Shown: one piece after another, positions 8,793 through 49,600 of the stretch
How the letters are laid out: every line of letters begins with the position of its first letter
Numbering within the stretch: the stretch's first letter is position 1
DNA from: Minisyncoccota bacterium
Lineage (GTDB): Bacteria > Patescibacteriota > Minisyncoccia > Phycocordibacterales > UBA918
Direction: 5' to 3'
DNA length: 64,000 nucleotides
Assembly: GCA_937975855.1 (NCBI GenBank)
Contig: CALJTT010000004.1
Span: 5,583 to 69,582, forward strand
The notes under the pieces: generated by a model
Told to the model about the DNA's origin: nothing
The model's database searches: none
Seen by the model: the letters and a program-made list of their open reading frames with translations, nothing else
Made by a program: the position numbers and the translations under genes

Positions 8793-8840
8793 GGCAAAAT
8801 TATAACAACTTTTTGCACTGAAAATCCCTCATATGCACAA

Positions 8841-8866
8841 ACAAAAAACCCACCTCGTGGTGGGAG
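8841..8866 (-). terminator. Rho-independent terminator downstream of the WxL-like gene 8912..10042 (minus-strand sense: cccacc-acga-ggtggg then UUUUUUGU)
   Basis: Plus strand aaaaaacccacctcgtggtgggagatagg. The revcomp gives the hairpin followed directly by a T6 run. Confidence 0.7.
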
Positions 8867-10042: not shown

Positions 10043-10283
10043 AGTACTCTACGTTGTATTAGTTCATAGTTGTCGCGTGTGTGGTACACGCATGTGACAA
10101 TTTCTCCAACAAGGTCTCCACTCCGAATCGGAGAAAACCACGAACGCATTCACAGAGCCACACCGGCTGAAGTGCTCGCGCAAAAAGCGCTTAGTACCAC
10201 TAATTGAGTACTACCTCCATGAATACTCCCCTATTGTACTTTGGTCAGTTAAGACAAACTTCGATTATGCACAAAAACTGCTG

Positions 10284-33500: not shown

Positions 33501-35061
33501 GCTGTGAAATGTATTGCAAGGTGAACTCGGGAGCCTCACTTCTAGTAAAGTTTAATTTTTTACTGATCATTGACGCTGCTTCGGGAATTTTCAGGTGCTG
33601 CAAATTTTCTGGTGAACCACGCCGTTCGATATCTTCATTTGTGACAACCTTGGTTTGCAGCTCTATCCAAGCCGCGTCCAAGAACATACCATCTAGCAGA
33701 TCAACATCCCCGCGATATACAACCGAAATAGAGATATCTTCCAGATCGGTGAGCGAAGTTACGTCCGGTAGTGCAAACAAGAAATAACCACCATTGAGAG
33801 CGTTTGAAATTTCTTCCTCCAAAAGAACCACACCAACAGTTTGTTGTGTGGTTGAAGCGCCATAGAGAACTTCGATATAAGGAGCTTCACCGTCTGCTGC
33901 AGGAGTTTTGAGTTTGGCCGCCATAGAAACGCGCAACTGGGCGTCGGTGATGAACTGGCCAGGTTGAAGTTTAGGTAGATCAAAATCAGTCACAACCAAT
34001 TCGCTCTCAACAGGGTCAATCCGCTCGTCAGATTCACCTGTATTTATGTTGGTTGTTTGCGAATCTAATGATTCAGTCGGTAGCACTTCGGTAGTTGTGG
34101 CTGCTTGAGATGAAGTTGTTGATCCTAACGGTTCTTCAGGAACAAAATCCACCACATTATCAACCAGTTCTGAATCAACAGCATTCGCGACTGAGACCTC
34201 TTCTTCAGGAACAACATCGGTTGAAGTGGCAGAAGTGACATCATTAGCTGCAACTTCTTCAGGTAAAGATTCATTGTCTGTCTCTATCACCGCAATCTCT
34301 GGCGTTGAAGTTTCCGAATCCTGCACTTCCTCTTGTTCAAGGGTTTCTTCGTCAACTACCAGATCGTCTGTTGTTGATGTTGCAATATCAACCAACAAAG
34401 GATATTTGCCAACCGATGGTCTAATTGTTTGCGACAAGTACCATGGTGTCTGATAAAGCGCCTGGGAAGTTGTGGCGGAAAAATCTTCGATCTCAGTCTT
34501 ATCCTCCTGAACTTGTTCGTCTGTAACTTCAACAGTCTGTACTTCTTCAGGAATCGCGGCAGTGTTTGAAACAGTTTCTTGTAGCTGCTCTTGTAGGCCA
34601 GAATCAGAGGACGAAGAGACGACGGGCTCTATCTCTAAATCGTTTACAACTGTCGAAGGTTCGACAGTATCTCGCTTTTTAGCTGTTGGAATGACAATTC
34701 GTTCTTGAGCTATAAACGATGAATTTTTTGCAGTGAAGTTTTGATAAAGACTGTCATTATCAAGATCGCGCACCAGCGCACGCTTGGAAGAAGCCCATGA
34801 ATCTGCCTCGGTTTCTGTTGGGTAAACCTCAACCGCAACATCAGAACCAAAGCTGATCGGTTCGCGCTTTGAGTACGCAGCTTCGGGTTCAAGAATAGAT
34901 ATTAAAAATACAACAACCAGAGTAAGAGCCAGCGATTTTGCAAAATAGTGACCAACACTAAAAGGCGAAATTAAACCATTTCGCGCTGTATTAACAGTAT
35001 TTATTTGTACTTCGTTTCTTTGGTTGTCGAGTTTATTCGTACCCACAAAGATAATGGCCAA
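18511..35061 (-). CDS. Giant (5516 aa) membrane-anchored surface protein/adhesin. Layout: N-terminal TM, acidic S/T/E/V-rich stalk, two FN3-like modules, six-bladed W-D/N-G-x-x-W beta-propeller, three tandem ~770-800-aa super-repeats of beta-helix-like units, DUF2341/LamG-like domain, Cys-containing C-terminal region ending in a Y-W-G-I tag.
   Basis: Uninterrupted 16,551-nt ORF. TM LALTLVVVFLISIL. FN3-like TTYYWRIQARDPEG (~30691-30740) and TTYWWRVRAKDP (~29911-29950). Blades VWDGTTW (29371-29420) to TWNGSSW (~28631-28665). Repeated ...SLYSQDH..DGDLYI.G.Y...WSYATDFDGT at ~26090, ~23690, ~21400. RWRNDDGN at 20711-20760 followed by D-F-D-D-L-R-F...Y-W...VWVQVP...YMYYNN (DUF2341 signature, ~20330-20700). 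Confidence 0.8.
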   Translation of the reverse strand: MAIIFVGTNKLDNQRNEVQINTVNTARNGLISPFSVGHYFAKSLALTLVVVFLISILEPEAAYSKREPISFGSDVAVEVYPTETEADSWASSKRALVRDLDNDSLYQNFTAKNSSFIAQERIVIPTAKKRDTVEPSTVVNDLEIEPVVSSSSDSGLQEQLQETVSNTAAIPEEVQTVEVTDEQVQEDKTEIEDFSATTSQALYQTPWYLSQTIRPSVGKYPLLVDIATSTTDDLVVDEETLEQEEVQDSETSTPEIAVIETDNESLPEEVAANDVTSATSTDVVPEEEVSVANAVDSELVDNVVDFVPEEPLGSTTSSQAATTTEVLPTESLDSQTTNINTGESDERIDPVESELVVTDFDLPKLQPGQFITDAQLRVSMAAKLKTPAADGEAPYIEVLYGASTTQQTVGVVLLEEEISNALNGGYFLFALPDVTSLTDLEDISISVVYRGDVDLLDGMFLDAAWIELQTKVVTNEDIERRGSPENLQHLKIPEAASMISKKLNFTRSEAPEFTLQYISQRNALVRGFRSILRSDMVEVENVLVSHKSYGPMPLQPEVSVTPDGKFDIKIPDAQLVNLRPGEYEIELTLNEGGKQTIDTFSFQWGILTINSNKTEYATGESVNFSVGAITPTGHTICSANIDLYVTDPAGVIERLPVVESGLCDGNNVIDVPDFLASSTAGIPGEYKLYLERLSDDGEVLSFTSDTFRVVETQDVSISREGPTRIYPPAAYPMILTVDSSAGFDGTLTERVPKDFEIFDTDASITIDNDDQVLTWDVSVSAGESIEVSYQFDAPDISPFLFVLGAAELQGDVVRTASTTGSSNISFVEHRQWQIASDAVGKMLLFWDSGASIPTDWVCVSCAPADPFYQRFIVASSTYNNTGGAATHTHTAVGSVLGSAAASTESGSGAVAPVSHTHTYTPTISSESNLPEYRQLRVIRYDVAAGEPTTIPAGAIAMFDTASSSLPAGWNRYAAQDGKYVYGEDTPGTTAGSNTHTHGITGTTANAAGAGTRIRGGGSQQSGATDTHNHTVNSNSDSVDNQPPFIEILLAELSADDAPPNGLIAMWDEDVDGGWVSVSDDGDAFSNRFIKAAATYGATGDVQSHTHADALGITSSGPSATINARSGSSGSAGAHTHQVDATDFSTDDHLPPYVTVRFGKRQGVDPVYTQLSSRWYANAASLTPTEPWPNDGGGVDLIEREPITATSTPVADGDVVRLRLNTEVTNATSTIGSDFKLQFAEASVCSFAATWTDVGDVASAAIWRGYNVGGIADGATLPSTLLSSSTVVATYEEDALASSTPNEIAVSDVGEWDFVLEHNGASAGTQYCFRLVQADGTVFFSYNHYPQLLTNFSPDTLTLDKPFISEKTASTTQEFYFTAFDDEGDNVHYSIEIDDDPAFGSPLVAKNTISNSSQFENQVLVADKAPFRHGEQMKFTPVVSFTDGTTYYWRIQARDPEGSNSWGNWSEIYNFTVDATLLATAWFQTENEQFQAGALDGVEVSGDSVQLITGSTTGTLTSESIVFFDGVNGTVWEDFVFTDVETTGSISYQIEYYDGSAWSLVPDSALPGNSSGFGTSPVPLLDVDTGEYDTLRVVATFTNSGGSPTLQDWTINWGYKVETPTIFSLFANEQVGTTTPTFEFVADDPQSEDLTYQISWSTDRDFAASTTRTSDVDGGFTNIVTGADTSPFNANERIRFEIQPADALTGTTTYWWRVRAKDPTGDNVYSFWTVERSLTVIPGTDVSTWFQTTKDQFDTDILSGTISTEAGYLTVATTATEAMIVYGEGIETEPRYRLWTGTVLSEEGTLLDISAPLKWSVVKAAPTREEYIAVTLGTDADINAQTYTIGEWRSQQELTTSVSDISARGFDVEYETLSGDAIAVYCDGDADPSYYVWDGTTWTSGGTINVAETTNCTWIELAANPTSDEMVIMVRGSDGNPFEAQVWDGSAWGNPTTLGRITESAYAGMALEYEESGGQAVIVASDGNPARFTWSSWNGTAWSAAANQTIGNDFEWGSLVRDEGSDDMALCLVDDTSDIAVVRWDGAAWTLDDNLETASVKTEPSFDCSFETTSGRDNHIMLTYSDATATNYQTYNNTAWSAETQVNTIINTATMQLERMGEGLILGAFLDNANDTLRFSTWNGSSWSTTVDLVTNVSVDTSPYGRPYDIGARQPGSTGSTIVSPPVYFEDGTGPYWQEFAWNDFQPGTSEIRYFVQYLSATNSWQMIPPSDLPVNELGTTTSPIDLSGLDRFTYNVVRPFAELACDGSGNCPEMYDWAVTWAAGLTISGTAQGYDQSTNVTSGNVVVAVNGVLQAGKVGTISAGVWSIDNVTVFPGDIVTVFVSGAADAAEAVGVTLYDGIGDIDGFELYERHVSIGSNDATSTPLTNLDIGSYTFTNDEDVFLSLSGSVLNTCADAGCTDAELYIKSGALYQPEGDIITHDFENNGSFTLETHSMEVSGSWENSATTSLSDSTVLFSALVGNEVIDNTGATTTFGSLTFGSTTSSAIWTVSPLLDVNGNLTVETGTLARATTSINVVGDITTGATGFWTGIGTTTLDGNSASIWSDKNVTLQNIGHVVIDGSSKIISLGSDVAAQSITIGIDDTLDASSNNYDLYVYGDWTNNNAFVARQGEVFFVATTTSHVIISAADAFYDLSFTGVGGSWSFAETEVFVNNNLTIATGTVTLPTATTTIDGSFDSTGGAFLHNNGVLYFTSDGPENITFDGAEFTNVAHNMTFEGAGTWTMTDTNATSTNDVNILQGSVLFPSGVFAIGGSLVADSGSFDGGTGTTRFYSSVAEVLTTSGSSFNNVVFDGIGSWSFSDTNALATGDLFVYGGALTLPDTFTIGGSYDNQATVSAGTSLVVFDSLDNGETIDFGADPLHDVLIASETGGWTVVSSATTTGTFTLASSSDFTMQSGESLSVAGEFHNYVGGASTTWTGSTLSLEAGAYSINNETDPGDTYGTIRVANDTDIKMWNSDAVVYDVDATGSLYSQDHGAIDGDLYIFGNYNIAGGNEYWSYATDFDGTDLAALSAQRQANVRFADGASADFDSVTFEIIGDFAASTTVANQGSGTYNVTVSGGTFDAQYHTFSNLGSTGLSLLDAVSVGVFENGSYQVDAVAGTALTLSSTTIDANPANQLYEISFSTTSAIFATNVSQTDGTPLSYWWFRSGAGNLYGESNDSDTGDPGSIRFDDSLLVITMAGTVYADAGVTPLGGPTCDGATAVVNVYVEGNPAPYTGSCDAGTGAYSISGITIVGDPALTIYLNNAAGGEQGSIITRTPTANILDADIYANRVIVRHEDLAALTINQLAVRDNSEDVDLQFVAATNTDSDTLTVLSGNELYVWASTTFTPGGEVTLAGEGAGTSYDGSLTLADNATFNAFATSTLAIGGRFTLGASSTFNAASTTVLMNASTTGKLITAGDEVTFNNLTFDGAGGGWALTADIRVLGDVLMTDGVLSGNGDIYVESGDFAGAGTVLLNGGTTTMAVANNLGGAGSWTFHNLQLGDTLSVGTTTPLFTSTTTIGGVLTIEMAHFLDAGSTIWDLAGTGVVFVEEGTFLADTSTVVYSGPGSEVLATEYYNLTLAASGAPATYTTGTPGIIVDNDLVIAGVAATTFDQTTNDPQFDINGDVTIESNGVWVLSDLATTTIAGSYDNNGVLTAGTGTLTFDGSGAISVAAGSSDFANVVIDATGDVTVTEHATATDSWLLTDANTFTLNSGQTLSVGGTFFNDIGGAPTTWTGSTLRLYGGNNYAINASTTADSYATLEVDGTTQVRMWNSDALSYTVDTTASLYSQDHSNVDGDLYIWGSYNQTAANDHWSYATDFDGTSLAGSERIASVYIADNGSVTITGGQLSVLGSASASSTVENQGSGTYALTIGGTASSTFDYYTLSDLNIDGLVITGSASIGSLSHGSIGVSQTGGSAVTVGGTAITANPAKAFTLNQLYLDGAASGFGATATGTSVSSWRFTNHYGDIAGEGFDVDPDGDPGYVSWDDSAANITISGTVYSDEGVTTAGASVCDGATTAVNVVVAGLTTYSSTCDGSGVYSVTGVTYSPGDSIIAYLLPATGEEGATVTADPVSNISNFDIYQNRVIVRHEATDPLTIADMSVWDSSDDAAIPFTAVDSAPDTLTVDSGFGLIVWTDKTFAPQGDMTVTGGSALDYDGTLKLLSGSTFDGGAAEVYSLGGSLISETDATFDAQTSSTTFTSSSAGRTVDTNDSGFYNLAFAGSGDWTMLDGDINNNFLITDGTVTLPSSTTTVSGSFVNSGGAFDANSGTLLFDSAVAGKTVTFGGSDANEVLFSGPGTWTMSDTTATATASFIVVDGTVTLPTGTLTVAGDFVVDGTIAHAGGEVVLTSTTGGNLVTLSGNDLNSLTIAAAAGDYTLIDMSASLLDSLTLTGGTFTVGTGTLAIGGSFDVSGGTYSHASGTLLFNSNDAGEFIDPGANDLYNVVIAGTGGWTLTDSATTTNNFSLSNAGSFTVVPGSVLYVGGVFSNDVGGAATTWTSTTLVLDGSNEYETNDKTIPTEAYDTLVLGENTDISSWNSSATTVSVPSSSSWYSQDHAGADGDLNIYGDYHISTTTEYWSYATDFDGTDLSGSERVVTVRLADNSSATVDGGSLQIVGEAGNETNITNQGSGTYSFAVSSGALNALYYSVRNTDAAGWQLSGVPTISSLSYGDFELAVDGGSLMTLSSSTVNANASLIITGSRFATSASITGNNITLSGVTGNVWTFASHVGNLDGEVYDIDGATDCGSVRWGDSSCLITQQTDFRWRNDDGNAQVPDIEWMNTDWAARQPVRLTNADAATYTDVAVQVTVPYDSDMRSDFDDLRFTDNTGTTTVPYWIGSSTDSTIVEVWVQVPTMPAESDTVLYMYYNNPSATSSSDLEQVFVAADDFEDNDIAEYTGQTALFATDASFAFDGTYGLGNAGNESSRATLGGMYRFDQSVSQGETIRYQQYVDTSAGTSDETCVLFGVQSPGSTNENYAVCIEQFGTDRITLVRDAVENDASGTIIGSSTVTYTTGWYEVEVDWRTNDTFDLRLYNDAGTQVTSFSASDSTYTTGGYGFTFWFHNGGWDSFSSRPTMTSKPNVRFGAEQSDGGATWAAEQNTAATFEAGDTARLRLAVENSGGAITAQRFALEYVPKGSAPSCEAVSTAGYLDVPVQSSCGLSPVCMQTSTEVTNGETTVDLLNDVSGQFTAGELREDPSNETGDLDIAMFEYTEIEYVITPTINVDDQNLCFRVTDQGTELDTYLEVAELTLRFDPVLGSLSLNDGLDISLSAGTTTEIIASTTVTDLNGIADIVSATTTFYKTSVGAACSPDDNNCYVATSSCTYTNCTTNACSLQCSAPIVYHADPTDLDGAEEWFAFMEVEDTTGAVDFVTSTGVELLTLRALDIQNSIAYGVVEVTNNTGAFNPAVTLHNIGNESIDVQIAGTDMSDGASSVIAAAQQRYATSTFNYAACVGCSALTVTPANLELDLSKPTTTTPGVTDNLYWGIEVPFGSASRPHTGINSFTAIGD
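20700..28500 (-). repeat. Three tandem in-frame super-repeats (~2.3-2.4 kb each, ~770-800 aa) inside the giant gene, each composed of shorter ~45-50-aa beta-helix-like sub-repeats
   Basis: Anchor motif (S/W)LYSQDH..(V/I)DGDL(Y/N)I.G.Y.......(Y/H)WSYATDFDGT(D/S)L recurs at ~26090, ~23690, ~21400. Flanking segments align over hundreds of residues (e.g., SGTVY(A/S)D.GVT..G..CDGAT.AVNV.V and IYANRVIVRHE(D/A)). Confidence 0.75.
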
Positions 35062-35158: not shown

Positions 35159-36697
35159 TTACTTCAGAATCGCCTTTACATCACTGATTTCTTTTTCAAT
35201 CAAGGTTTCAGATACCTCTAGTGCTTGAGTCAAGCCTTGGACCGCTTCTCTTTCCTTTTCGGTTAGACGCTTGCGTTTTGTAATATGATTAACCTGATCG
35301 TAAATTTCGTCTCGTAAGGCAGAGAAAATTTTCTCCATCTGGTCTTGTATTTCGCGGGTTTCTCTGCGTAGTTTTTCTTCTTTGATACGCAGTTGCTTGT
35401 GTTCGTACCAAACGTAGATCAGCAGTAAGAGTATTGTAAGGAATAGGAAGAAGATCAGCAGGTTAATGAAGGTGAAGTAATCCCAGAACGACCATTCTTC
35501 AACTAGTTCTACTGGCTTAGTCCACCCAGCGGTAATCAAAGCTGCAGCGGTTGTCTCCCTGGAATTGCCCGCCATATCGTAGGCAGTTACGTATACAGAG
35601 TATGTACCGTCTTCCAACTCGCCCAGTAAGTAACCCAGCTCTGCCTGCTGTGGAGTCACAGTGATTGGCTCCCCTCCATCAATAACTAATTTATAGTAGT
35701 CGATGCCGGAAGTAGAATCATTCGCAGCAAAGGTGAGGGTCGGGAACGAGTCTCGGGAAGGGCCCGGGTTTACACCAATGGTAAATGGTTCCGGTTCGGT
35801 TGTATCAATTTTCAACTGACGATTGGTCGTTGCACCCCAACCAACCTGGTTCTTAAAGTTGATACTGACATACTGAATCCCGTCAGTCGTGTTATCTGAA
35901 CTGACAACAAATTCATCAGTTGGTGGATCGATGATCGCTTCAAAGTTGTCTTGAGGAATGTTCTCAGGATCAGTACTAACTTCAACTGCAACCGCACTAA
36001 CATCAAACGGAAGTGTCCAGGCAAAGACACCGTCTGTGCTGTTGTACCAAATTTCAGAGTCGAGGAATATAGGTGATCCGATTTCTGGTGGTCGTGGAGG
36101 GTCACCGAAGATAATTGCTTCTTCAGAATCTTGGGCAGGCTGTGCAGCCGGTGCAGGTGCTTCTGCAGGTTCAGGTGTAGGGGCAGGCGGAGGTGTTGCC
36201 GCACCGCTCAGGGAATAATTACCACCAGTTCCGTTCTCAAAAACATCTGTACCACGACCGTCAGCTGCTAGTACAGAAGCTTCACCAAAATCCACTACAG
36301 CGTCACCTTCCCCAACGACTCTGAATGTCACATTAACCAGGTTAGATGTGGTAGTAAAAGGAGTTGGGCTACCGCCACCAAAGGTCACAGTTCCAGCGCT
36401 ATTAGAAAAGGTTGGCTCTGTAGTCCAAAGTGAGAAAACTGAACCTGACTTACTAACACTAACGACAGAAAGTTTACTAGCATCAAATGAAAGAGTTGAT
36501 TCGACAGCATTAACACTATCTCCACCTGGAACCGCACGAACAGTCACGGTAAAAGTTTGTCCGGAGGAATAAGAGCCTGTACTAGGTGAGACCACTAGAT
36601 CAGCCGCCAAAGAAAAATGGGCGCTCAGGAAAAATAATAAAATCGCTATTAGGGATAAGACGATTTGTTTTGGAAAGAACTGCTTTTGTTGAATCAT
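35159..36697 (-). CDS. Type-I membrane protein: signal peptide, N-terminal cohesin-like domain, Pro/Ala-rich linker, Ig-like domains, C-terminal TM helix and conserved cytoplasmic coiled-coil tail (paralog of 5999..7768)
   Basis: Signal (LSLIAILLFFLSAHFSLAA). Cohesin-like block LVVSPSTGSYSSGQTFTVTVRAV...VNAVESTLSFDASKLSVVSV..SVFSLWTTEP...TVTFGGGSP. Linker PPPAPTPEPAEAPAPAAQPAQ. TM FINLLIFFLFLTILLLLIYVWY. The tail ends ...TLIEKEISDVKAILK (compare ...AVEKEIQDVTKLAEKD in the paralog). Confidence 0.55.
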   Translation of the reverse strand: MIQQKQFFPKQIVLSLIAILLFFLSAHFSLAADLVVSPSTGSYSSGQTFTVTVRAVPGGDSVNAVESTLSFDASKLSVVSVSKSGSVFSLWTTEPTFSNSAGTVTFGGGSPTPFTTTSNLVNVTFRVVGEGDAVVDFGEASVLAADGRGTDVFENGTGGNYSLSGAATPPPAPTPEPAEAPAPAAQPAQDSEEAIIFGDPPRPPEIGSPIFLDSEIWYNSTDGVFAWTLPFDVSAVAVEVSTDPENIPQDNFEAIIDPPTDEFVVSSDNTTDGIQYVSINFKNQVGWGATTNRQLKIDTTEPEPFTIGVNPGPSRDSFPTLTFAANDSTSGIDYYKLVIDGGEPITVTPQQAELGYLLGELEDGTYSVYVTAYDMAGNSRETTAAALITAGWTKPVELVEEWSFWDYFTFINLLIFFLFLTILLLLIYVWYEHKQLRIKEEKLRRETREIQDQMEKIFSALRDEIYDQVNHITKRKRLTEKEREAVQGLTQALEVSETLIEKEISDVKAILK

Positions 36698-37282: not shown

Positions 37283-39238
37283 CTAGCCAGTCCAGTTAAA
37301 CAAGAGAATCGAGAAGTCTGTCAGACTGACTCTGCCATCTTGGTTTATATCTGCCGGTGGATCTGAATCCCCACCATCAGTTTCCCACCAAAATAACATG
37401 ATGGAAAAGTCTATCAAGTTAACAAACCCGTCACGGTTCAGGTCAGGATGAAGTGGTAGGTCGGCGCTCTGTCCAATTCCATAAAATTCATAATCCGAAA
37501 AGTTAGTAAAGGCAGCACCTTCTTGTTGTGCTTTTGCTCGAACTCTATATGTATCGCGTGCAAAACCAGTAGTTGTCAGTGTTGTACTGTACGACCCACT
37601 ACTGTCAGAAACTGCTACCAACTGAACAGTATTGGCACCGCTACTACGACCCGTTTCTAGTGTAATTGTTGCGTTGGGCAATGCGTACCCAGAAATAGTG
37701 ACAACCTCCCCCGCTTCCGCCGGATCAGGATCGACGTTGATTGATGGTGTGATATTAATATTGGAAAGTCTGGATGCTCTAGCTCCACTTATGGTAAATG
37801 ATGTGCTGTATGTACCTGAAAAATCACCAGTCCGATCCGTCGCGTACACGCCAAAAGTGTAGGCTCCACGTGCAATTTCGTCGATTATAATCGAGTACGA
37901 CCCGTCTGCTTTGGCGGTTACTGTATCGGCAATCTGTCCATCTACTAATATAGTGACCTCTGAGCCAGGAAAAGCCATACCAGAGAGAATAAGTCTACCG
38001 TCGCCACTTTCGTACGGACCGTCGCCGTCCTCAAAACCACCACCTGAGCCACCACCTGAGCCACCGCCTGAGCCACCGCCACCACCGGAGGACCCACCAC
38101 TAGAACCTGTAGAGCCGCCCACGTTTCCAGGGTCAGTTCCGTCACCGGCACCGGTACCATCTGTATTACCGCTACCGGTATCCCCACTTCCTGTACCGCC
38201 ATCTCCCAACCCTGCTCCTGGACCTCCAATTTCACCGTCTTCGTTAGGGGTTCCTGTGTTATTAGTGTCCGCCACTATGAACTGAATCAAATAGTCGTCG
38301 ATGTTCTCATTACCTTCATCATCGATACATCTGACGTACACCTGCACTACGGAAGCTGGAGTAATAGGAACGACGGCTGTGTGGGTAATCAGACCTGTGT
38401 TGTCAAACGAATTTGGTTGTGAAAAATATGGTGTACCAGATGCACTACTCCATCGACAGATGGCAAATTCGTCTGTTTCCAAAGAAACTTCAATAGACAA
38501 ACTGGTGCCAGGGAAAACCGCCAGCGTGCCCGAGGCTGTCGTTGTAGGCTGACCGTTAAAACGAAGTGGTGGGATCGTTTCTGTGGTGTCTGCGTTGACA
38601 GAAATTTTTTGATTCAAAAAAACCAGAAACCGAGCATCTGCGATACTTGTGCCGTCAACAATTTTTAAAGGAATCGAATGCGAACCTAGTACCGAACTGT
38701 TTTTAATTGGCTCAATATCTGTAACAGTTGTGGTTCCAGCAGAAAATCCATGAAGGGAACCTGACGTATGCTCACCGACCCGAAGTTCGACGCGAGCGCC
38801 TGGCGAAATTGTTAAATCGCTTGCCAATGTGTATCGCACAACACCGCCTGCACCCCTTGTAATATCAACGCGATCCACTCCGACACCAAGCACACTGTCG
38901 GCAGCCCGGGCAGAACCGTTTACATACAACTCGACGTTTCGGGCAGAAAAAGCACTGGTCGAGGCTGTTACTTCAAAGGTTGCCGGAAAGGTTGCTTCAA
39001 TATATGAACCAGGATTAATGGTCACATCTGGAACAAAGGAGAATGTATGGTTTGAAAATTGGCCCGGCCCTGAGTCAGACAGCGTGTCAGAGTATTGGGT
39101 AATATTAACAGCCAAAGCCTCAGTACCAGTTAAGGCCCAAAGACACAGTGTTACAAAAAATAAGATACGAACAGGCCGCAACATACGTGAATATGTATAT
39201 TGTACCGTGCGATACTCAAAAAAAACTGTGCTACCCAC
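37283..39238 (-). CDS. Secreted dockerin-bearing protein. Its N-terminal module has the same Y-S-D-T-L-S-D-S motif as the WxL-like proteins. Then a Gly/Ser/Asp/Thr-rich linker, Ig-like domains and a C-terminal dockerin. Probable start at the internal Met (~39184).
   Basis: Signal (ILFFVTLCLWALTGTEALA). AVNITQYSDTLSDSGPGQFSNHTFSF parallels ANVTTFSDTLTDSAPSVVSDHTIEF of 8912..10042. Low-complexity GTGSGDTGSGNTDGTGAGDG...GGSGGGSGGG. Dockerin DLNRDGFVNLIDFSIMLFWWETDGGDSDPPADINQDGRVSLTDFSILLFNWTG. Confidence 0.55.
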   Translation of the reverse strand: MGSTVFFEYRTVQYTYSRMLRPVRILFFVTLCLWALTGTEALAVNITQYSDTLSDSGPGQFSNHTFSFVPDVTINPGSYIEATFPATFEVTASTSAFSARNVELYVNGSARAADSVLGVGVDRVDITRGAGGVVRYTLASDLTISPGARVELRVGEHTSGSLHGFSAGTTTVTDIEPIKNSSVLGSHSIPLKIVDGTSIADARFLVFLNQKISVNADTTETIPPLRFNGQPTTTASGTLAVFPGTSLSIEVSLETDEFAICRWSSASGTPYFSQPNSFDNTGLITHTAVVPITPASVVQVYVRCIDDEGNENIDDYLIQFIVADTNNTGTPNEDGEIGGPGAGLGDGGTGSGDTGSGNTDGTGAGDGTDPGNVGGSTGSSGGSSGGGGGSGGGSGGGSGGGFEDGDGPYESGDGRLILSGMAFPGSEVTILVDGQIADTVTAKADGSYSIIIDEIARGAYTFGVYATDRTGDFSGTYSTSFTISGARASRLSNINITPSINVDPDPAEAGEVVTISGYALPNATITLETGRSSGANTVQLVAVSDSSGSYSTTLTTTGFARDTYRVRAKAQQEGAAFTNFSDYEFYGIGQSADLPLHPDLNRDGFVNLIDFSIMLFWWETDGGDSDPPADINQDGRVSLTDFSILLFNWTG

Positions 39239-39684: not shown

Positions 39685-40749
39685 CTAGGCAAAGAGTACC
39701 AACATAACCAACAAGAACAGAGCCAAGACAATGAGGACAGAAACAATGACCAATAAAGTAGCTGAAGATCCACCTTGCCCTTTCCTTCTTATCATTCGTC
39801 GTCCAGCGTTAACCTGTGCCAAAGCCCGCCTGACGTACAACTTAACCCCGATAATAGTCACTAGCAAAATAAACGCCAGAGCTCCCAAGGCAGGACCGAG
39901 TATGTTTAGCGGTAGAATCCAGAAAGTAACTGTGTTACTCATGGTTTTGTAGGCTCCTTGATCGCCATACACTGGACTAAGGATAGCTTCGTAGCGCCCA
40001 AAACCTGCTCCGTCTCCAATCCAGTTAACATCAGCAAACTCACGAGTCTTGCCTGGAAATACACCAGCGCGAGATTCATTAAAAGTAAGCTCGCCTACTC
40101 GTTTTCCAAGTGAGTTGTGAATAACCAGTGGCCCAGCCGGTCGAACCAATACATTACCGTTGTTTTCAATTTTAACGTTAAAGTCAACGTCCTGAGCACT
40201 ATAAATAAATTTACCGGTTGAAAATTGACGAATGCTAGCTTGTTCAACCACGTCACCAGTCACACGAATGCTAAGAATGTTGGCAACCTGATAGCCAACC
40301 GCGGCGCCACTGTTTTCCATCTCAGGAGGATCGGCAGATACAAACACTCCACCGAAGTGACTACCGGGGGATGCGCCTTTTGGGACCTCGAGAGTAAATT
40401 TCACCACCTCTGTTTCACCACCCTGCAGAAAAACACTGTCAGTCGACAAGTTAATCCAGGCAGCTAATTCATAGCCTGTCTCTTCCCAATCGTCGGCAAA
40501 TATAGGAACTCCGCCATCCCCTACTGATCTAATATTACGCGTGAATAAGAAATACTGCTGCGGAGCTGAATGTAAGTTCTGGATTTCAATTTCGAAGTTA
40601 TGAAGCGTGCCAGCATCAAGAGTTTCTTCTATTACCCCCGGAGAAATAGAAACACCAGCTTCTTGTGCCGAGGCAATCGACTGTGCAAATAACAAGAACA
40701 TCAAACAAGCAATTGTGGCAATGGTTTTATAGGGAACGATACGCAGCAT
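39685..40749 (-). CDS. DUF916/CscA-like cell-surface protein with signal peptide and C-terminal TM anchor(s) (paralog of 11386..12333)
   Basis: Signal (IACLMFLLFAQSIASAQEA). VSISPGVIEETLDAGTLHNFEIEIQN... has the same pattern as 11386..12333. C-terminal TM ALGALAFILLVTIIGVKLYV, a basic stretch, then a second hydrophobic helix. Confidence 0.4.
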   Translation of the reverse strand: MLRIVPYKTIATIACLMFLLFAQSIASAQEAGVSISPGVIEETLDAGTLHNFEIEIQNLHSAPQQYFLFTRNIRSVGDGGVPIFADDWEETGYELAAWINLSTDSVFLQGGETEVVKFTLEVPKGASPGSHFGGVFVSADPPEMENSGAAVGYQVANILSIRVTGDVVEQASIRQFSTGKFIYSAQDVDFNVKIENNGNVLVRPAGPLVIHNSLGKRVGELTFNESRAGVFPGKTREFADVNWIGDGAGFGRYEAILSPVYGDQGAYKTMSNTVTFWILPLNILGPALGALAFILLVTIIGVKLYVRRALAQVNAGRRMIRRKGQGGSSATLLVIVSVLIVLALFLLVMLVLFA

Positions 40750-40810
40750 AAATTAATCAATTATATTCAGTCCAGTGTAACAGCTACTTCGTCAAATTAT
40801 TTTTGTTCTC

Positions 40811-40840
40811 AACAACAAAACCTCCCAAAGGGAGGTTTTG
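40811..40840 (-). terminator. Rho-independent terminator downstream of the WxL-like gene 40864..41991 (stem aacctccc/gggaggtt, loop aaa)
   Basis: aacaacaaaacctcccaaagggaggttttgtg read directly. Confidence 0.65.
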
Positions 40841-40863: not shown

Positions 40864-41991
40864 TTAGAAAGTTGGTGTTGCGATGTATGTCAGGATTGTA
40901 TTGTAATCATCACCAGCTTCTTGGAATGATGTAATCTCAATTTTGTACGCTACTTCAGTTTCACCAACGTCTGCAGTTACTCCGTCAGTTGGACCATCGT
41001 GTGAGAAGATCTGACGAGGAGTTGTACTAGCGGCTACGAATAGCTGTGTGCCAAACTCGTCAGTGTTAAGGTCTGAGTCCTCAGATGTGAGTCCCCAGTG
41101 ACCCCATTCGTTTTCACCACCTGCAAGTGTTCCTGTAGGTGGAACCCAGGCTGTTGGTGTGTCAACGTAGGTCCCGTCTGTGAAGCCATCAATATCTGCT
41201 CCAGTTGACGATAGAAGGTTTTGATCTTGTTCAACCGTTACCACAAATCCGTTAATAGCATTGGTTGTAACGTTTAGCTTTTGACCTAAAACTTCTGGTA
41301 CACCAGCTACTAGCTGTGCGTAGTCGATGGTAGTTGCTGTAGTTGAACCAGTTGTTGTTTCCCCGTTAACATCAGTTGATGTTGCCAGTCCAGTTACAAC
41401 GAATTCAAATACTGTGTCTACAATCGCAGTAACGAGTACGTTATCTACGATCGCAACACGTGTACGACCTAAGTCTGCATCAGCGTTAGCTACAGCGACT
41501 TCAATTTCGTATGAGTCTCCGACACCAGCGGCATTAACTTTAGCTGGGTTAGTAATTACTCCGTCCGCGACCACAATCTCTACTACCTGCCCCGCGACCG
41601 CTGTTGCGCCGTCTACCACGATGGTGTCAGCTGTAGCGCTAACGAAAGCTCCACTGGCTACACCATCGACTGTTACTGTCACATCCCCCGCAAGAACGTT
41701 GGCAACGTCTACAAATGACTGTCCGACTGTTCCGTCGTCTTGACTGTCAAACGTAACGGTAATGTTATCAGCTGGTGCGATTCCTACACTACCTACTGGT
41801 ACTGTGAATTGAATCGTGTGACCTGACGTCTCTGATGGTGCAGAGTCTGTCAGTGTGTCGCTGATATTAGTGAGGTTAGCTGCTTGTGCGATTTGGTGAA
41901 AGCCGATAGTAGCTGTCACAACTGCACATGCAACAAGTGTCGTGACCACTCGTTGCGTAACGCCAACTTCTAAAGTTGATTTTACGAACAT
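40864..41991 (-). CDS. Secreted Thr-rich surface protein with WxL-like C-terminal domain (paralog of 8912..10042)
   Basis: N-terminal hydrophobic anchor/signal. ANLTNISDTLTDSAPSETSGHTIQF. C-terminus ...ENEWGHWGLTSEDSDL...DDYNTILTYIATPTF. Strong terminator immediately downstream (40811..40840) and a 330-nt leader upstream. Confidence 0.5.
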   Translation of the reverse strand: MFVKSTLEVGVTQRVVTTLVACAVVTATIGFHQIAQAANLTNISDTLTDSAPSETSGHTIQFTVPVGSVGIAPADNITVTFDSQDDGTVGQSFVDVANVLAGDVTVTVDGVASGAFVSATADTIVVDGATAVAGQVVEIVVADGVITNPAKVNAAGVGDSYEIEVAVANADADLGRTRVAIVDNVLVTAIVDTVFEFVVTGLATSTDVNGETTTGSTTATTIDYAQLVAGVPEVLGQKLNVTTNAINGFVVTVEQDQNLLSSTGADIDGFTDGTYVDTPTAWVPPTGTLAGGENEWGHWGLTSEDSDLNTDEFGTQLFVAASTTPRQIFSHDGPTDGVTADVGETEVAYKIEITSFQEAGDDYNTILTYIATPTF

Positions 41992-42320
41992 GTTTGTTTG
42001 TATTTATTTTTTAAATAACTACGCTCTAGTGGCCGTTGTACTGAACACTTGAACTAACTCGGTAGAGCGTTTATGGAGATGACTACTAGTTTCAAATTAT
42101 GAGAAAAACTCAGCCTGTGAAATTTAGTTGCCCGCTTCTACCGATCTGTCTTTAGTATATTCTGTCTTTATTAAACTGTCCTAAATGTGCTGTTGATAAC
42201 TCTTATTGTGTGACCTTGTGTCGGATAAAATCCTTTGTTTATGAACAGTTTGTGGGCATCTTGTCGGACGTGGCGGATATAACACTTCAAGTACAAATGT
42301 CTGATATTTACTTTAACTGC

Positions 42321-43577
42321 TTAGCTAGCAGTCACAACCGGCACTTCTGACCACTGTGTCGTATAAGAATTACTACGCGCGGCAGACTTGGATTGCCAGA
42401 GAGGTTGCTTTAGGCGCGATCCAACTTGTACCAATTCCCTATCCGCATTTTTGTTTAGTTTATCGAGTGCTGCAAACAAAGGGTCGTTGTCATTTGGAAG
42501 GTCCTTCAGAAAGAGTGAGTTCTGGGTCAAGTCCGTAGACTGAATACCTGAAACTATAACTCCTACGCTCTGATATGGAACCTCTGACTCGTACAGTTCT
42601 ATAAACAATGTTTCCGCGGCTTTTATTATCTCAAAAGTGTCGTTGGTGGAATGCTGCAGGACCAGTTCCTTAGTGCCGCCGCGCAAGAAAAAATCACCAT
42701 GACGACTGGTTTTAAGGGAAACTCTCACTACTGCACTTTTCGCGTTCATAGCGCGCAAATCCAGCGCTACAGAACGTGCATGGTGCGCTAAGGCGTCCAG
42801 TATAATATCCTTATTTTCCGTACTTTTAGAGAAAGAACGTGTACTCATCAGACTCTTCTGCAACGGACGCTTACTACCCACCTGGTGTATATATTCACCG
42901 AGGAGCTCAGCATGCAGACGAGCGCCCACCACGCCATAAATTTGCTGAATTATCGCTTTGTCAGTATTACAAAAGTCAGCAACGGACTTCAGGTCATCTT
43001 GAGCAAATTTTTGAGCTAACTGTCGGCCAACACCCCAAACTGTTGAAAGTTGTAAATCTTCACTTAGGGCAACCCATCCCGACTCTTGTAATACATTTAC
43101 TCCAGAAGCTTTCTTGGCTAGGTCGGTACTAATCTTTGCCAGTGTCTTTGAGGAGGCAACGCCAAGAGACACAGGCACACCGACCTCTCTCAATACTCGA
43201 TCCCTGACATTTTTAAGTGAGCTCAAAGTTTCGTTATTGTTCTCGATCAAGAAGAATGCTTCATCAACAGAGTACTGTTCTACAACAGAAAACTCGTCTC
43301 TCACAATATCAAAAACCCGACGTGAGATATCTCGATACAAAGTTAGATTGCCAGAAAACGTTTGTATACCTTTGTCTTTTATAATGTCCTTGATCTTAAA
43401 GTAAGGGACACCCATTGGTATTCCAATGTCCTTTACTTCCTGAGACCTGGCGACGACACACCCGTCGTTTGACGAAAGTACGAGTGTCGGGTGATTTAGT
43501 AAATCTGGTCGGAACAGTCGTTCGCAAGAAACGAAGAAATTATTACAGTCCACTAATCCAACCGAAACCTTCTTCAT
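42321..43577 (-). CDS. umuC: Y-family translesion DNA polymerase (UmuC/DNA pol V catalytic subunit)
   Basis: MKKVSVGLVDCNNFFVSCERLFRPDLLNHPTLVLSSNDGCVVARSQEVKDIGIPMG... is the canonical Y-family N-terminus. Start chosen at MKKVS (43577), overlapping the umuD stop by 4 nt. Confidence 0.8.
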   Translation of the reverse strand: MKKVSVGLVDCNNFFVSCERLFRPDLLNHPTLVLSSNDGCVVARSQEVKDIGIPMGVPYFKIKDIIKDKGIQTFSGNLTLYRDISRRVFDIVRDEFSVVEQYSVDEAFFLIENNNETLSSLKNVRDRVLREVGVPVSLGVASSKTLAKISTDLAKKASGVNVLQESGWVALSEDLQLSTVWGVGRQLAQKFAQDDLKSVADFCNTDKAIIQQIYGVVGARLHAELLGEYIHQVGSKRPLQKSLMSTRSFSKSTENKDIILDALAHHARSVALDLRAMNAKSAVVRVSLKTSRHGDFFLRGGTKELVLQHSTNDTFEIIKAAETLFIELYESEVPYQSVGVIVSGIQSTDLTQNSLFLKDLPNDNDPLFAALDKLNKNADRELVQVGSRLKQPLWQSKSAARSNSYTTQWSEVPVVTAS

Positions 43578-44014
43578 ACCAAACGCCGCAGAGTGCCAGT
43601 AACCACACCCCATACGTGAACATCATCAGCGTCACCAATGGGAATCGGTGCGTAACCTTCTTTGGCTGAAACCAGCTTACTCTGTGATGAAGTTTTATAT
43701 AACTGCTTAACGACAAGTTCACCGTAGACTGCCGCCACAACTATGGACAGATGTTCCGCTGGAACTGAACGATCTACTACCAAAACATCTCCGTCAAAGA
43801 TTCGCTTTCCTTCCATAGAGTCACCGCTGACACGCACAAAGAAAGTCGCAGTCTCGTTATCGATCATTAGATCATTTAAATTCAAAGGTCTTTCAACCAC
43901 ATCGTCGCCAGGAGTTGGAAAGCCAGCCGCTGGCTGTACGTCGTACAAAGGGGCTTCCACACCATCCACCTCCGCCTTGTTTACCTTTGTGACATTCGAG
44001 TCAGTTACTTTCAT
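43574..44014 (-). CDS. umuD: UmuD-like S24 LexA-family self-cleaving peptidase subunit
   Basis: MKVTDSNVTK... with an A-G cleavage site context (QPAAGFP), the catalytic Ser motif (VSGDSMEG) and a Lys (VVKQLYK). ~146 aa, so UmuD-sized rather than LexA. ATGA overlap with umuC. Confidence 0.7.
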   Translation of the reverse strand: MKVTDSNVTKVNKAEVDGVEAPLYDVQPAAGFPTPGDDVVERPLNLNDLMIDNETATFFVRVSGDSMEGKRIFDGDVLVVDRSVPAEHLSIVVAAVYGELVVKQLYKTSSQSKLVSAKEGYAPIPIGDADDVHVWGVVTGTLRRLV

Positions 44015-44043
44015 TCTTATGAGTATATATGAGTATATAAAAA

Positions 44044-44058
44044 CTGCACTTTGTGCAG
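44044..44058 (-). promoter_or_regulatory. Perfect palindrome CTGCAC-N3-GTGCAG ~30 nt upstream of umuD start. Candidate SOS/LexA-type operator overlapping the promoter. Adjacent tandem direct repeat GAGTATATAT x2 (44021..44040) gives a duplicated TATA-like -10.
   Basis: Read directly: ctgcactttgtgcag. Lies between umuD ATG (44014) and the upstream gene end (44082). Confidence 0.4.
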
Positions 44059-44081
44059 CATCAACACCCACGTAAATTTGA

Positions 44082-46694: not shown

Positions 46695-49600
46695 TTAGTT
46701 CGCAACTAGCTGTGCGTTGTCAATTTCTAGGAATCCGACTGCTGCTAGGTTGTTGAAGATTGTTACAGTTACAACATCTTCGGGAGTAATAAAGATGTAC
46801 GATGTTTCGTTCCATCCGGCAGATACAGCCAATTGTCCAAGAGTGTCGTAGACAAAGCTTCCATCGTTCATTGTGTATCGCACCACTACGTCAGCCGCCA
46901 CATCGTTTTGGTGTCCGATTGTGAAAGTGTAGCTCGTGCTAGCTGTCACGTTAACGTCTCCAAAGTACCATTTAGCATCACCGCTAGTGTAGTCAGTAAA
47001 CTCAACTCGGGCAGCGTCAGATCCGTCAGGACCGGCTACTGGGTAAGTGAAGACTGCGTCATTGACTCCCCATCCGCCCTGGAGCCAGTTTGTTGGGTTG
47101 TTGGCAGAGCCGGCTTCAAGGTCGCCGTTGACAATCAGGTTCCCTCCCGTTGGTGGAGTAGTTGTACCATTGTCAACTATCAGAGTAATCTCGGTACTTT
47201 GTCCGATATTTCCAGCTTCGTCTTCTGCTTCCACTATTAGTTGGTGTGGACCATTTGTCAGTTCTGTTGTGTCGAGCACAAAGTCATAAGGCGCCACTCC
47301 GTCCGTGTCAGTCACCGCACCGTTCACTAGTAGTCTAGTTTGATCTACTCCGACATTATCAGTCACAGTCGCGTCGATATTCAGTACGCCGCCACGTGTC
47401 TCACCATCTGATAGATTTGTAAGAGTCACAACTGGCGCTTGTGTGTCGTTCGACGTTGTCGTTGTGCCTGTTGTCCCAGTCAGTACCCAATTGTCGATTT
47501 CTAGGAATCCAACTGCTGTCAGGTTGTGGAAGATTGTTACAGATTCTGTGTTTGTCGGCGTTGTGAAAGTACCATTGTTTGTAGTCCACGCAGCTGCAGG
47601 AGCGAGAGAATCTAGGAATCCATACTGGAATGTACCGTCAGTCATTGTGTACTGTGCAACTACTTCGGTTGCCACATCTGACCGGTACTGGTGAGAATAG
47701 CTGTACGCGTCTCCACTGACAACCGCAACTGGCGCAAAGTACCACTTCGCATCACCACTGTTGTAAGCTGTCATTTCGATTCGAGCAACGTCACCACCTT
47801 GTCCGTCAACTGGATAGATGAAGTTTGCAGTATTATCTCCCCATCCGCCCTGGAACCAACCATTTGGCGTTCCGACACCTGCTTCAATGTCGCCGTTGAC
47901 AATCAAGTTGTCGCCAGTTGGAGGGTCGACTGGATCAGTAGTTGTTCCAGTATCGTTCTCAACCACTATTGTCAGCTGATCGGCAGCAGCGTTTGCATTG
48001 GCTGATGCGTCGATAGCTTCAGCTCGCAGTGTATATGTGCCGTTTGCCAGTGAAGTCACATCCACTGCAAATGCATAAGGTGCAGTTGTGTCGGTGTAGA
48101 AAAGCGAAGTTCCAACAATACTAAGAGTTGTTTCTGTGATACCGCTTGCGTCCTCGGCGTCTAGTCGCACTTCAAACGCACCTGACAAGGTTTGTCCATT
48201 TCCGATGTTGGCAATCGCAACATCAGGAGCAACATTGTCGTCATCCACTGGAGTTCCTGCGTCACCAACCAGACTCACATTGTCGATCTCTAGGAAACCA
48301 ACTGCTGCCAGGTTGTGGAAGATTGTTGCCGCAGTAGCGTTTGCTGGTGCAGTAAACTGGAATGTGTTTTCTGTCCATGTTGCTACAGGTGCTTTACTGT
48401 CGATGAATTCGTATTGGAATGTTCCATCAGTCAGAGTGTAAGCAACGACTGTTTCGGTCGTAACGTCAGAACGATAGAAGTTTGTGAACTCGTACACTTC
48501 GTTTGGCGTGATTGCCACTGGAGCAAAGAACCACTTTCCGTCTCCGCTTGTGTATGAAATCATTTCTACTCGCGCTGCGTCTCCGTTTTGTCCTGCAACT
48601 GGATACGTGAATACACGATCGTTAGTTCCCCATCCTCCTTGTGCCCAGTTTGTTGGGTTGTTAGCAGAGCCTGCTTCCAGGTCGCCGTTAGCGATTAGAT
48701 TATCGCCAGTTGGAGGGTCCACAGGATCACCAGTCACTTGTACTAGCGACACGTTGTCGATGTAGCCATAAGAAGGCTGAGTAACATCTACCACTAATGG
48801 TGTGTGGAAGACTGTTACTGTCGCTGCGTTTTCTACTGCTACAAAATCTACTTCGTAACTAGTTAGGTCATTAGGACTATTCGTGTCGTAGGCCGGAGAA
48901 TATCCAAGCAACTCAGCTTGAGTTGTGCCATCAGCCAATGTGTAGAATGCTACAACCTCGTTACTGTTTTTGCTTGAGTAATCAACGCTAAATCGATATG
49001 TCTCGCCAGCAGTTACAGCCACGTCGTCGAATACCCATTTTGCATCGCCCGAAGTGTAGTTAAAGATTTCTACGTAGCCAACATTGTTGCCGGTAGTATC
49101 TTGGAAGACATTGTAGTTGTTGTCGTTGATACCGTAACCACCTTCTCGCCATCCTACTGGATCGCCAGCTGCGTCGAGCACTTCGAATCCGCCGTTATTT
49201 ACCAAGTTATCACCTGGTACAACAACTTGGTTGTCGATCACAATCGAAATTTCTACTGCATCGTTGTTTCCAAATGGATCGTATGAAGTTGCTTTTAGTA
49301 CGTTAGTACCGTTCACAAAGTCAGTTGTGTCAACCACTACTTCGTATGGTGCCGTTGCGTCTTCTACGCCAATTGCATTTCCGTTAAGTGCGAAGAACAC
49401 ACCAACCACTTCAGTTTCGTCGGTAGCAGTCGCTTCAAAAGTTACTGTCCCCGAAACTGTTTCGCCGTCTGTGTGACTCACGATGTTTACTACTGGAGGA
49501 TTTGTTTCTGACTGGTTTCCAGTTGAAGATGCCGTAATAACCACGTCATCGATAGTCAATGTTCCCACTGCACTAATAAGGTGGAATGGTGTCATCGTCA

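Follow-up and report, generated by a model that had tools for sequence, protein, structure and literature searches.

We examined the minus-strand gene at positions 40864..41991 of a 64,000-nucleotide stretch of DNA from a Minisyncoccota bacterium (GenBank assembly GCA_937975855.1, contig CALJTT010000004.1, positions 5,583 to 69,582; hereafter the window), together with its downstream terminator and its long upstream leader. It is fairly probable that this gene encodes a donor-strand pilus subunit of the Pam kind, that it is expressed from a short and stabilized mRNA, and that the motifs exposed in its leader are regulatory. Along its full length the 375-amino acid (aa) product shared 47% identity with that of the gene 8912..10042 (376 aa; BLASTP E 1e-85), which bears out the paralogy noted in a preliminary description of the window made from the sequence alone. 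The two genes are called type 2 (copy 2, 40864..41991) and type 1 (copy 1, 8912..10042) below, and the features are collected in Table 1.

The pilin-like protein and its family

The type-2 protein starts with a signal peptide, with a hydrophobic helix at residues 6-32 followed by AQA/AN, and ends with a conserved ...LTYIATPTF. In the AlphaFold2 (AF2) model (predicted local distance difference test score, pLDDT, 85.7) helix 6-32 is followed by nine strands between residues 41 and 181 that form an N-terminal beta-sandwich, a linker strand (195-201) and a C-terminal beta domain (233-373). This modeled architecture agrees with the layout described for the pilins PamA and PamB, and the size is PamB-like. 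More than 1764 database clusters matched the family, all of them unnamed and without Pfam domains; its members came from metagenome-assembled genomes (MAGs) of Paceibacteria, Kaiserbacteria and Nomurabacteria, and each genome held two pilin paralogues.

Pfam gave no match for the 375-aa protein, PDB sequence searches with the protein and with its profile returned nothing, and no surface-layer (S-layer) family of Pfam or NCBIfam was matched. The copy-1 paralogue gave a single weak NCBIfam match, to NF058581 ("CPR_Pam_pilin_C"; 21.8 bits, with an NCBI cut-off of 55 bits). This model derives from the preprint of Troman et al. on the filaments of Ca. Mycosynbacter amalyticus, a member of the candidate phyla radiation (CPR), whose structure was solved (10.64898/2026.03.03.709456). 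When 43 family members were scanned singly at E up to 1, 31 of them matched NF058581 (best E 5e-8) and no other family recurred, whereas the WxL models of Pfam matched none of the 43 at the same limit. The label "WxL-like" given to the gene in the preliminary description is therefore dropped, and a WxL identity of the pilin was rejected for want of Pfam support in these members. As sub-cut-off scores indicate remote homology and not curated membership, we file the 375-aa protein as a remote, Paceibacteria-specific relative of the Pam pilins. It is a probable pilus subunit, and of the structural surface proteins that the preliminary description had considered, a pilin fits best.

A third protein of the window shares part of this sequence. 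The 651-aa product of 37283..39238 resembles the pilins in its first ~65 mature residues (BLASTP E 8e-7), and the motif SDTL[ST]DS occurred in exactly three open reading frames (ORFs) of the window, namely those of the two pilins and of this protein. Its gene is kept in synteny among relatives, and the protein may be a minor or tip subunit.

The chaperone-like neighbor

The 354-aa gene that follows the pilin gene, as it does in 68 loci, encodes a protein with a signal peptide, two immunoglobulin (Ig)-like domains and two hydrophobic C-terminal helices (281-315 and 328-353). All 35 orthologues matched the Pfam family WxLIP_PGBD (DUF916, PF06030; best E 1.8e-9), several database orthologues carry PF06030 or are named "DUF916 domain-containing protein," and the orthologue profile matched EfmWxLIP1 of E. 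faecium in the PDB (9i25_C, 9i1y_A; E 2e-5). The window's own protein scored 16.9 bits against DUF916, compared with a Pfam gathering score of 27.3. The DUF916-like nature of the neighbor, which had been proposed earlier, is thus upheld.

The AF2 model of the 354-aa protein (pLDDT 82.5) matched the chaperones CfaA, CsuC, Caf1M, EcpB and CupB2 as well as WxLIP in Foldseek, with E-values from 1e-7 to 3e-11 and target-normalized template modeling (TM) scores of ~0.45-0.57. The second Ig-like domain is present in this model, and fn3_5 was found in 25 of 35 orthologues; no match to DUF3324 was reported. By sequence and predicted fold the neighbor is a remote DUF916/WxLIP relative with a pilus-chaperone fold, and the pilin gene thus has, as the Pam pilins do, a gene for a putatively membrane-anchored PapD/FimC-like chaperone next to it. 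One C-terminal helix is described for PamC, PamD and WxLIP, in contrast to the two seen here. An Arg-rich loop joins these two helices (residues 281-354), and the C-terminus is near-invariant (...LLxLFA, here ...LLVLFA).

At the copy-1 locus a remote chaperone-like paralogue lies two genes upstream of the pilin, and the gene directly downstream of pilin 1 is unrelated to it. As the chaperone placement differs between the loci, the module has been duplicated but rearranged: the second copy described earlier holds for the pilin and, remotely, for its chaperone, but a DUF916-like partner directly downstream is found only in copy 2. Upstream of the copy-1 chaperone-like gene we also observed a 633-aa Thr/Ser-rich protein (12427..14328, minus strand) with a weak N-terminal TadE/G-like match (E 0.001).

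The transcription unit

Each pilin gene is followed by an intrinsic terminator that we read from the sequence; both were missed by a generic terminator scan because of its tail rule. The type-2 terminator, which begins 25 nt beyond the stop codon, has the G+C-rich hairpin and the U-rich tract 3' of a stop codon that define such an element. A G+C-rich hairpin with a T-run within 160 nt of the stop codon was found in 75 of 82 homologous loci but in only 19 of 420 windows drawn at random from these loci (4.5%); the median distance from the stop to the end of the hairpin was 43 nt. The sequence and this conservation bear out the terminator proposed in the preliminary description, and its picture of a secreted structural surface protein whose gene stands alone as a unit closed by a terminator is supported as well.

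The 5' gaps of the two genes (329 nt, 41992..42320, and 241 nt, 10043..10283) are the two longest same-strand gaps in the window among ORFs of at least 110 aa. A leader of about 330 nt had been ascribed to the type-2 gene; the non-coding gap does have this length, but it holds a promoter-like site, and therefore only ~155 nt likely form the transcribed leader. This site consists of a -35 element at 42177..42182 and a -10 element at 42154..42159, and GACA, TAtAaT and their spacing are conserved in 61 aligned loci, with the consensus GTTATCAACA, ~10 nt, GACA, 17-18 nt, TAtAaT, ~7 nt, AGAUCG. Transcription is predicted to start near 42147. Exact copies of the box GTTATCAACA occur in 61 of the 84 loci, 187 to 250 nt before the ATG; the box may be an UP-like or activator site. 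It had 9 near-matches in the window (5.7 expected); a role as a general promoter box was rejected, as of two near-matches inspected neither lay at a promoter.

Farther upstream (42201..42320, minus strand), just 3' of the umuC stop codon, semi-conserved GACA...TGTC-like palindromes were observed, for example AGACATTTGTAC, GACACGTCC, GACATGTC and GACACAAGGTC. They also occur in the related loci L001-L087, with exact versions in about one quarter of the loci, and may be operator sites.

The 354-aa genes that start at 40749 and 8792 each have a TATAAT only ~7-10 nt before their ATG (40749..40775 and 8792..8815, minus strand). No Shine-Dalgarno sequence was seen upstream of the four starts inspected (41991, 40749, 10042, and 8792). 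The position of the TATAAT suggests that these mRNAs are leaderless or nearly so, and the long pilin leaders stand out against them.

A conserved rod-shaped RNA in the type-2 leader

The type-2 leader is conserved in orthologues. Across 84 loci four elements lie at a fixed distance from the ATG, namely GTTATCAACA (~-200 to -220), GGCTGAG (~-120), TCTCCA (~-85) and GTTATTT (~-28). The 89 nt at the 5' end of the predicted transcript form a rod (P1, P2 and P3) with two exposed motifs, A and B, of which B reads UCUCCAC in 70 sequences and UCUCCAU in 4. A variable hairpin, P4, follows, and from the near-invariant AGUUAUUUAA to the ATG extends an A/U-rich stretch without a Shine-Dalgarno sequence.

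Covariation supports this structure, as the preliminary description had anticipated when it suggested RNA structure in the leaders. In RNAalifold all nine pairs of P1 showed compensatory changes; the helix was 96.5% paired and eight of its nine pairs carried double changes. The covariation score of P1 and P2 together was 0.434, compared with 0.197 after shuffling (none of 500 shuffles reached it) and with 0.08-0.14 when partners were slid. P2 and P3 contain many pair types, and their register was lost in the MAFFT alignment, where P2 was 58% paired in fixed columns. A fixed-offset test of P2 was weak (5.0 vs. 4.4 of 7 pairs), as the helix register varies from clade to clade, and it was superseded by folds of the single sequences and by an alignment-independent chimera test, in which the 5' half of one sequence was joined to the 3' half of another. 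Native cores had a mean of -25.9 kcal/mol, chimeras of -15.3 kcal/mol, and only 13 of 479 chimeras reached the native mean. The shuffle z-score was below -2 in 56 of 61 sequences.

When the invariant motifs were held unpaired, 57 of 61 sequences folded into the same unbranched rod. It consists of P1 (median 11 bp), without unpaired bases on its 5' side, a ~12-nt bulge on the 3' side that contains UCUCCACAGAAA, P2 with P2a (median 12 bp), an internal loop with GGC, and a short P3 hairpin. The G-U pairs are consistent with the sense strand, and hits of a covariance model on the reverse strand scored far lower. This model, R1, was built from 39 seed sequences of the 89-nt element. It gave one hit in the window (42058..42146, minus strand; 57.5 bits, E 9e-13; the next at E 0.16), and in ~814 kb of related loci all hits with E<0.01, which included many non-seed loci, lay 60-170 nt upstream of a type-2 pilin start. 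Rfam had nothing at gathering thresholds in the whole window, and in E-value mode the region 41800..42500 gave noise alone (E>4). From these searches the rod is a previously undescribed RNA specific to type-2 pilin genes.

RNAalifold offered as an alternative a cis pairing of GGCUGAG with UCUCCA. It was rejected: its energy was -4.0 kcal/mol and it was broken, without compensation, in the variant L055.

The type-1 leader and its complementarity to the type-2 leader

The preliminary description had proposed a conserved motif and structure common to both leaders. This did not hold: direct alignment of the two leaders revealed no real similarity, and R1 had no hit at leader 1 or in other type-1 leaders. 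The two genes instead carry two different conserved RNAs, whose key motifs are reverse complements of each other and not copies.

Type-1 leaders were gathered by a metagenome scan with type-1 proteins (loci L088-L167). Their consensus comprises, from 5' to 3', TACAAT, a 5' closing helix, a hairpin with UUGGAGGUA, a hairpin with the loop (C)UUCAGCC(G), and AGUGGAGA. In 97% of sequences the stem of the UUCAGCC hairpin comprised 4 bp or more, and the stems covary; the complementary flanks of AGUGGAGA are less regular and form 4 or more contiguous bp in 61%. GTGGAGA was present in 65 of 65 type-1 leaders, at -77 to -117, and ACA[AG]CGTAGAG at -14 in 45 of the 65. We regard the type-1 leader as a second candidate RNA family that is absent from Rfam.

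GGCUGA and UCUCCAC of the type-2 leader are exact reverse complements of UCAGCC and GUGGAGA of the type-1 leader. The order, A then B, is identical along both leaders, which therefore are neither inverted copies nor colinear antisense RNAs. Mean duplex energies over windows of 15-16 nt were -11.5 kcal/mol for A with A' (-6.4 shuffled) and -13.0 for B with B' (-7.3 shuffled), compared with -5.9 and -2.3 for the mismatched pairings A with B' and B with A'. In cis, A with B of type 2 reached -4.0 and A' with B' of type 1 reached -8.2.

Motif A read GGCUG in 53 of 61 type-2 sequences, GGCUA in 4 and GACUG in 2, and motif A' read CAGCC in 60 type-1 sequences, UAGCC in 1 and CAGUC in 1. Leader pairs from the same genome gave mixed evidence that was mostly supportive of pairing. 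In the MAG JBJOQE01, CGACUGCA of type 2 and UGCAGUCG of type 1 form a compensated 8-bp match, and a relative with both loci on one contig (L080/L086) has CGGCUGCA and UGCAGCCG; in the window GGCUGAG stands with CUUCAGCC. The U-to-A change found in motif B of L169/L138 is uncompensated, and a 7-bp duplex shifted by one base persists. It is possible, though on balance doubtful, that the two paralogous 5' leaders are matched structured RNAs that pair in trans at the two sites (GGCUGA/UCAGCC and UCUCCAC/GUGGAGA).

Table 1. Features of the two pilin loci, in window coordinates.
Feature	Position	Strand	Evidence or remark
Type-2 pilin-like gene	40864..41991	-	ORF, 375 aa
Type-1 pilin paralogue	8912..10042	-	ORF, 376 aa
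Intrinsic terminator, AAAACCUCCC-UUUG-GGAGGUUUU then GUUGUU	40811..40839	-	Read from sequence
Copy-1 terminator, CCCACC-ACGA-GGUGGG then UUUUUUGUUUG	8838..8864	-	Read from sequence
Membrane-anchored chaperone-like protein, 354 aa	39685..40749	-	DUF916 hits, AF2 model, Foldseek
Remote chaperone-like paralogue, 315 aa	11386..12333	-	hhalign probability 95%, E 3e-8, 168 columns
Protein with pilin-type N-terminus (NITQYSDTLSDS...), Big_6 and dockerin, 651 aa	37283..39238	-	BLASTP, Pfam
Conserved upstream box GTTATCAACA	42191..42200	-	~10 nt upstream of -35 element
Sigma-70-type promoter, AGGACA, 17 nt, TATACT	42154..42182	-	Scan and conservation
Conserved rod-shaped RNA, 89 nt, 5' end of leader	42058..42146	-	Covariation, folding, covariance model
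P1	42133..42144 with 42059..42069	-	Helix of 89-nt rod
P2	42125..42132 with 42081..42088	-	Helix of 89-nt rod
P3 hairpin	about 42100..42112	-	Part of 89-nt rod
Motif A, GGCUGAG; GGC unpaired, UGAG 5' strand of P3	42109..42115	-	Complements copy-1 loop UUCAGCC
Motif B, UCUCCAU; ~12-nt bulge, 3' side between P2 and P1	42073..42079	-	Complements copy-1 GUGGAGA
Variable P4 hairpin (loop GUACAACG, 3' strand UAGAG), then near-invariant AGUUAUUUAA	42011..42056	-	Alignments
Type-1 leader, different conserved structured RNA	10043..10238	-	Minimum free energy z -2.1, alignment of 62 leaders
Type-1 -10, TACAAT	10233..10238	-	Type-1 leader
Type-1 5' closing helix	10215..10228 with 10146..10157	-	Type-1 leader
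Loop motif A', CUUCAGCCG	10164..10172	-	Type-1 leader
Motif B', GUGGAGAC	10114..10121	-	Type-1 leader
ACAACGUAGAG	10047..10057	-	Just before type-1 ATG

Genes around the two loci

Gene order around the type-2 gene is kept in relatives down to ~60% identity: a CAP-domain protein, umuD, umuC, a gap of ~300-340 nt and the pilin are followed by genes for proteins of ~355 aa, ~140 aa and ~630 aa (Big_6 and dockerin), HSP20, a ~510-aa cohesin-like protein and a giant protein. The umuD-umuC pair (S24 peptidase and IMS polymerase; 42321..44071, minus strand) is the immediate 5' neighbor of the type-2 pilin gene in almost every relative (L001-L087), and a CAP-domain gene often precedes it. Giant ORFs of the window encode 5516 aa (18511..35061, minus strand), downstream of the copy-2 locus, and 2010 aa (46695..52727, minus strand), upstream of it; in relatives the corresponding position holds a giant protein of ~7400 aa. 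Cohesin-like domains were found at 5999..7768 (Pfam), 7728..8792 (by eye) and 35159..36697 (Pfam Cohesin on orthologues), and dockerin-bearing proteins at 10284..11423 and 37283..39238. Cohesin-like and dockerin proteins thus flank both pilin genes, which hints at a link between the pilus loci and a cohesin-dockerin surface assembly.

Discussion

We propose that a Pam-like pilus of Paceibacteria has two paralogous major subunits and that the gene 40864..41991 encodes one of them. The subunits would be secreted by the Sec pathway and bound by the PapD/WxLIP-type chaperone in the membrane (39685..40749), and beta-strand complementation would join them. The gene would be transcribed from its own promoter, with the upstream box, into a short mRNA that mostly ends at 40811..40839, and the terminator would leave the subunit in large excess over the products encoded downstream, namely the chaperone and the minor subunits. 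The 89-nt rod of ~27 bp would open the mRNA, only a few bases from the predicted 5' end; a helix at the extreme 5' end most likely shields the mRNA from decay that depends on the 5' end, and the invariant unpaired GGCUGA and UCUCCAC most likely are regulatory, either by pairing with the type-1 loops or by binding a factor. By analogy with the Pam pilins, which are the 2nd and 9th most abundant proteins of Ca. Mycosynbacter amalyticus according to the Pam preprint (10.64898/2026.03.03.709456), high expression of the pilin gene may be expected. Pili and pilins went unmentioned in a metatranscriptome paper on Patescibacteria.

The data bear directly on the gene, its terminator, the protein family, the fold matches, the covariation of the RNA, its specificity and the complementarity of the motifs; filament formation, the transcription start, high expression, mRNA stabilization and trans pairing are steps that we infer from them. 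Several points weigh against the proposal. The 375-aa protein itself had no match in a search with NF058581, and every score of its family for this model was below the 55-bit cut-off. Its likeness to PamA and PamB is drawn by way of the published description and this model, and in full-length Foldseek searches its own model found only generic two-Ig adhesins at TM ~0.2, matches that do not assign it to a fold family. The role of the leader in mRNA stability is argued from its position alone. Finally, the chaperone gene may have its own, near-leaderless start, with TATAAT at 40760..40765, and the pilin gene, described earlier as monocistronic, is therefore at most likely to be so.

An improbable alternative is a WxL-type surface complex, in which the protein would not polymerize and would be held and stabilized at the envelope by its membrane-anchored WxLIP-like neighbor, as has been proposed for the WxL clusters of Firmicutes. 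The neighbor is indeed detectable by sequence as a DUF916/WxLIP relative, its model fits the E. faecium WxLIP structures as well as it fits pilus chaperones, and strand insertion by WxLIP into WxL has been predicted (PMC10599100). However, the WxL-domain signal is absent from the 43 family members, the sequence signal that they do have is that of the Pam pilin C-terminal domain, the two-domain architecture with a linker strand fits Pam pilins, and a third gene encodes a pilin N-terminus, as minor subunits have. That the protein forms an S-layer or a sheath-like lattice is far less probable still: its own promoter, long leader, terminator and secretion signal are shared with many S-layer genes, but there was no S-layer family hit, the partner has a pilus-chaperone fold, and the similarity is to Pam pilins.

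For the leader, two other explanations were considered, both of them unlikely. It may be a riboswitch-like cis-regulator that senses a ligand or protein, with GGC and UCUCCACA as the pocket and P4 with UUAUUU as the expression platform. In favor of this, covarying helices enclose the internal loop and the bulge that contain the invariant nucleotides, the near-invariant AGUUAUUUAA comes after a variable hairpin, and there is no Shine-Dalgarno sequence. Against it, the rod is unbranched and has no junction, the UUAUUUAA tract, whose exact sequence is conserved, would make a poor terminator tail, and the element has no Rfam match and is tied to a single gene family. About as unlikely is an explanation at the level of DNA, in which GGCTGA and TCTCCAC are double-stranded boxes, in opposite orientation downstream of the two pilin promoters, to which one transcription factor would bind at both loci. 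In double-stranded form the boxes of the two loci are the same, and a shared DNA-binding factor would therefore give the same "covariation"; the "compensatory" change in L055/L065 is the same box change in both loci and is equally expected with such a protein. Nevertheless, both boxes are flipped while their order is retained, and we favor the RNA reading because the motifs are displayed, unpaired, between covarying helices in both leaders, because box differences within one genome retain G-U pairing (UCUCCAU/GUGGAGA in the window, UUGGCUG/CAGCCGG in L168/L136), and because cis pairings are broken in the variant clade.

The closest known system is the Pam pilus, whose pilins PamA and PamB polymerize by donor-strand exchange and whose chaperones PamC and PamD are PapD/FimC-like and retain a C-terminal membrane helix, as described in the preprint (10.64898/2026.03.03.709456). 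Measured against that description, the family studied here is likewise restricted to CPR, has a Sec signal peptide, a mass of ~38 kDa (PamB 38.7 kDa) and a weak match to the C-terminal model, and comprises two paralogous pilins per genome, an adjacent membrane-anchored PapD-like chaperone and a further gene with a pilin-like part. It differs in lineage, which is Paceibacteria here but mainly Saccharimonadia and Microgenomatia in the preprint, in sequence scores below the family cut-off, in the second C-terminal helix of the chaperone (Pam has one), in the spacing of the pilin genes, which lie ~31 kb apart here but in one operon in Pam, and in the flanks, with umuDC, HSP20 and cohesin/dockerin genes instead of ATP synthase, CorB and MFS genes. 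The abstract and Results of the preprint describe no leader RNA.

With the WxL/WxLIP clusters of Firmicutes (PMC10599100; PDB 9i25, 9i1y) the neighbor shares sequence, fold, two Ig-like domains and a membrane anchor. The proposed principle is also alike: an anchored protein would complete the beta-sandwich of its partner with a strand of its own, as has been proposed for WxLIP and WxL (PMC10599100). Here, in contrast, the partner has no WxL domain, there are two membrane helices, the host is a CPR bacterium and not a lactic acid bacterium, and the locus showed no LPXTG protein.

The chaperone-usher pili (Pap/Fim, CFA/I, Csu, Caf1) share the predicted chaperone fold (Foldseek E ~1e-7 to 3e-11). 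In the pap and fim operons a terminator follows the major subunit gene, so that the subunit exceeds the assembly factors, and the putative major subunit gene studied here is likewise followed by a terminator. The present system differs in having neither an usher nor an outer membrane, in its membrane-anchored chaperone and in its two-domain pilin. Stabilizing stem-loops at the 5' end are known from abundant mRNAs such as E. coli ompA and from S-layer slpA leaders. The type-2 leader resembles these in its length, in a stable helix predicted within a few bases of the 5' end and in an envelope-protein mRNA (whose abundance here would follow the Pam analogy), but it has a 27-bp rod, invariant unpaired motifs and class-wide conservation, which is more than stabilization would need. 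The closest precedent for trans pairing is hly-prsA2 of Listeria monocytogenes, where a 5' untranslated region pairs with another mRNA and couples linked secreted proteins (PMC8722363). For the pilin leaders such pairing is a hypothesis, in which, unlike in Listeria, both partners would be 5' leaders of paralogues with two complementary sites conserved in many genomes.

Much of bacterial diversity belongs to the CPR, and little is known of how these bacteria attach to hosts. The Pam pilus was first described in 2026, in Saccharimonadia; the protein system of the window is a distant variant of this recently described kind, in a class where it had not been emphasized, and the locus suggests that a distant Pam version is a core, highly conserved feature of Paceibacteria. 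By sequence and predicted fold the locus links Pam, the WxL/WxLIP systems of Firmicutes and the chaperone-usher systems, and points to one widespread principle of strand complementation in bacteria without an outer membrane. The type-2 and type-1 leaders add two new candidate RNA families with clear covariation or conservation. Their reciprocal complementarity is the most interesting part, and it raises the concrete question whether the mRNAs of two paralogues regulate one another by way of exposed motifs that complement each other. If so, trans pairing would couple the stability or translation of two subunits of one filament, and the leaders would be a conserved mRNA-mRNA regulatory pair that is spread across a major class of the CPR.

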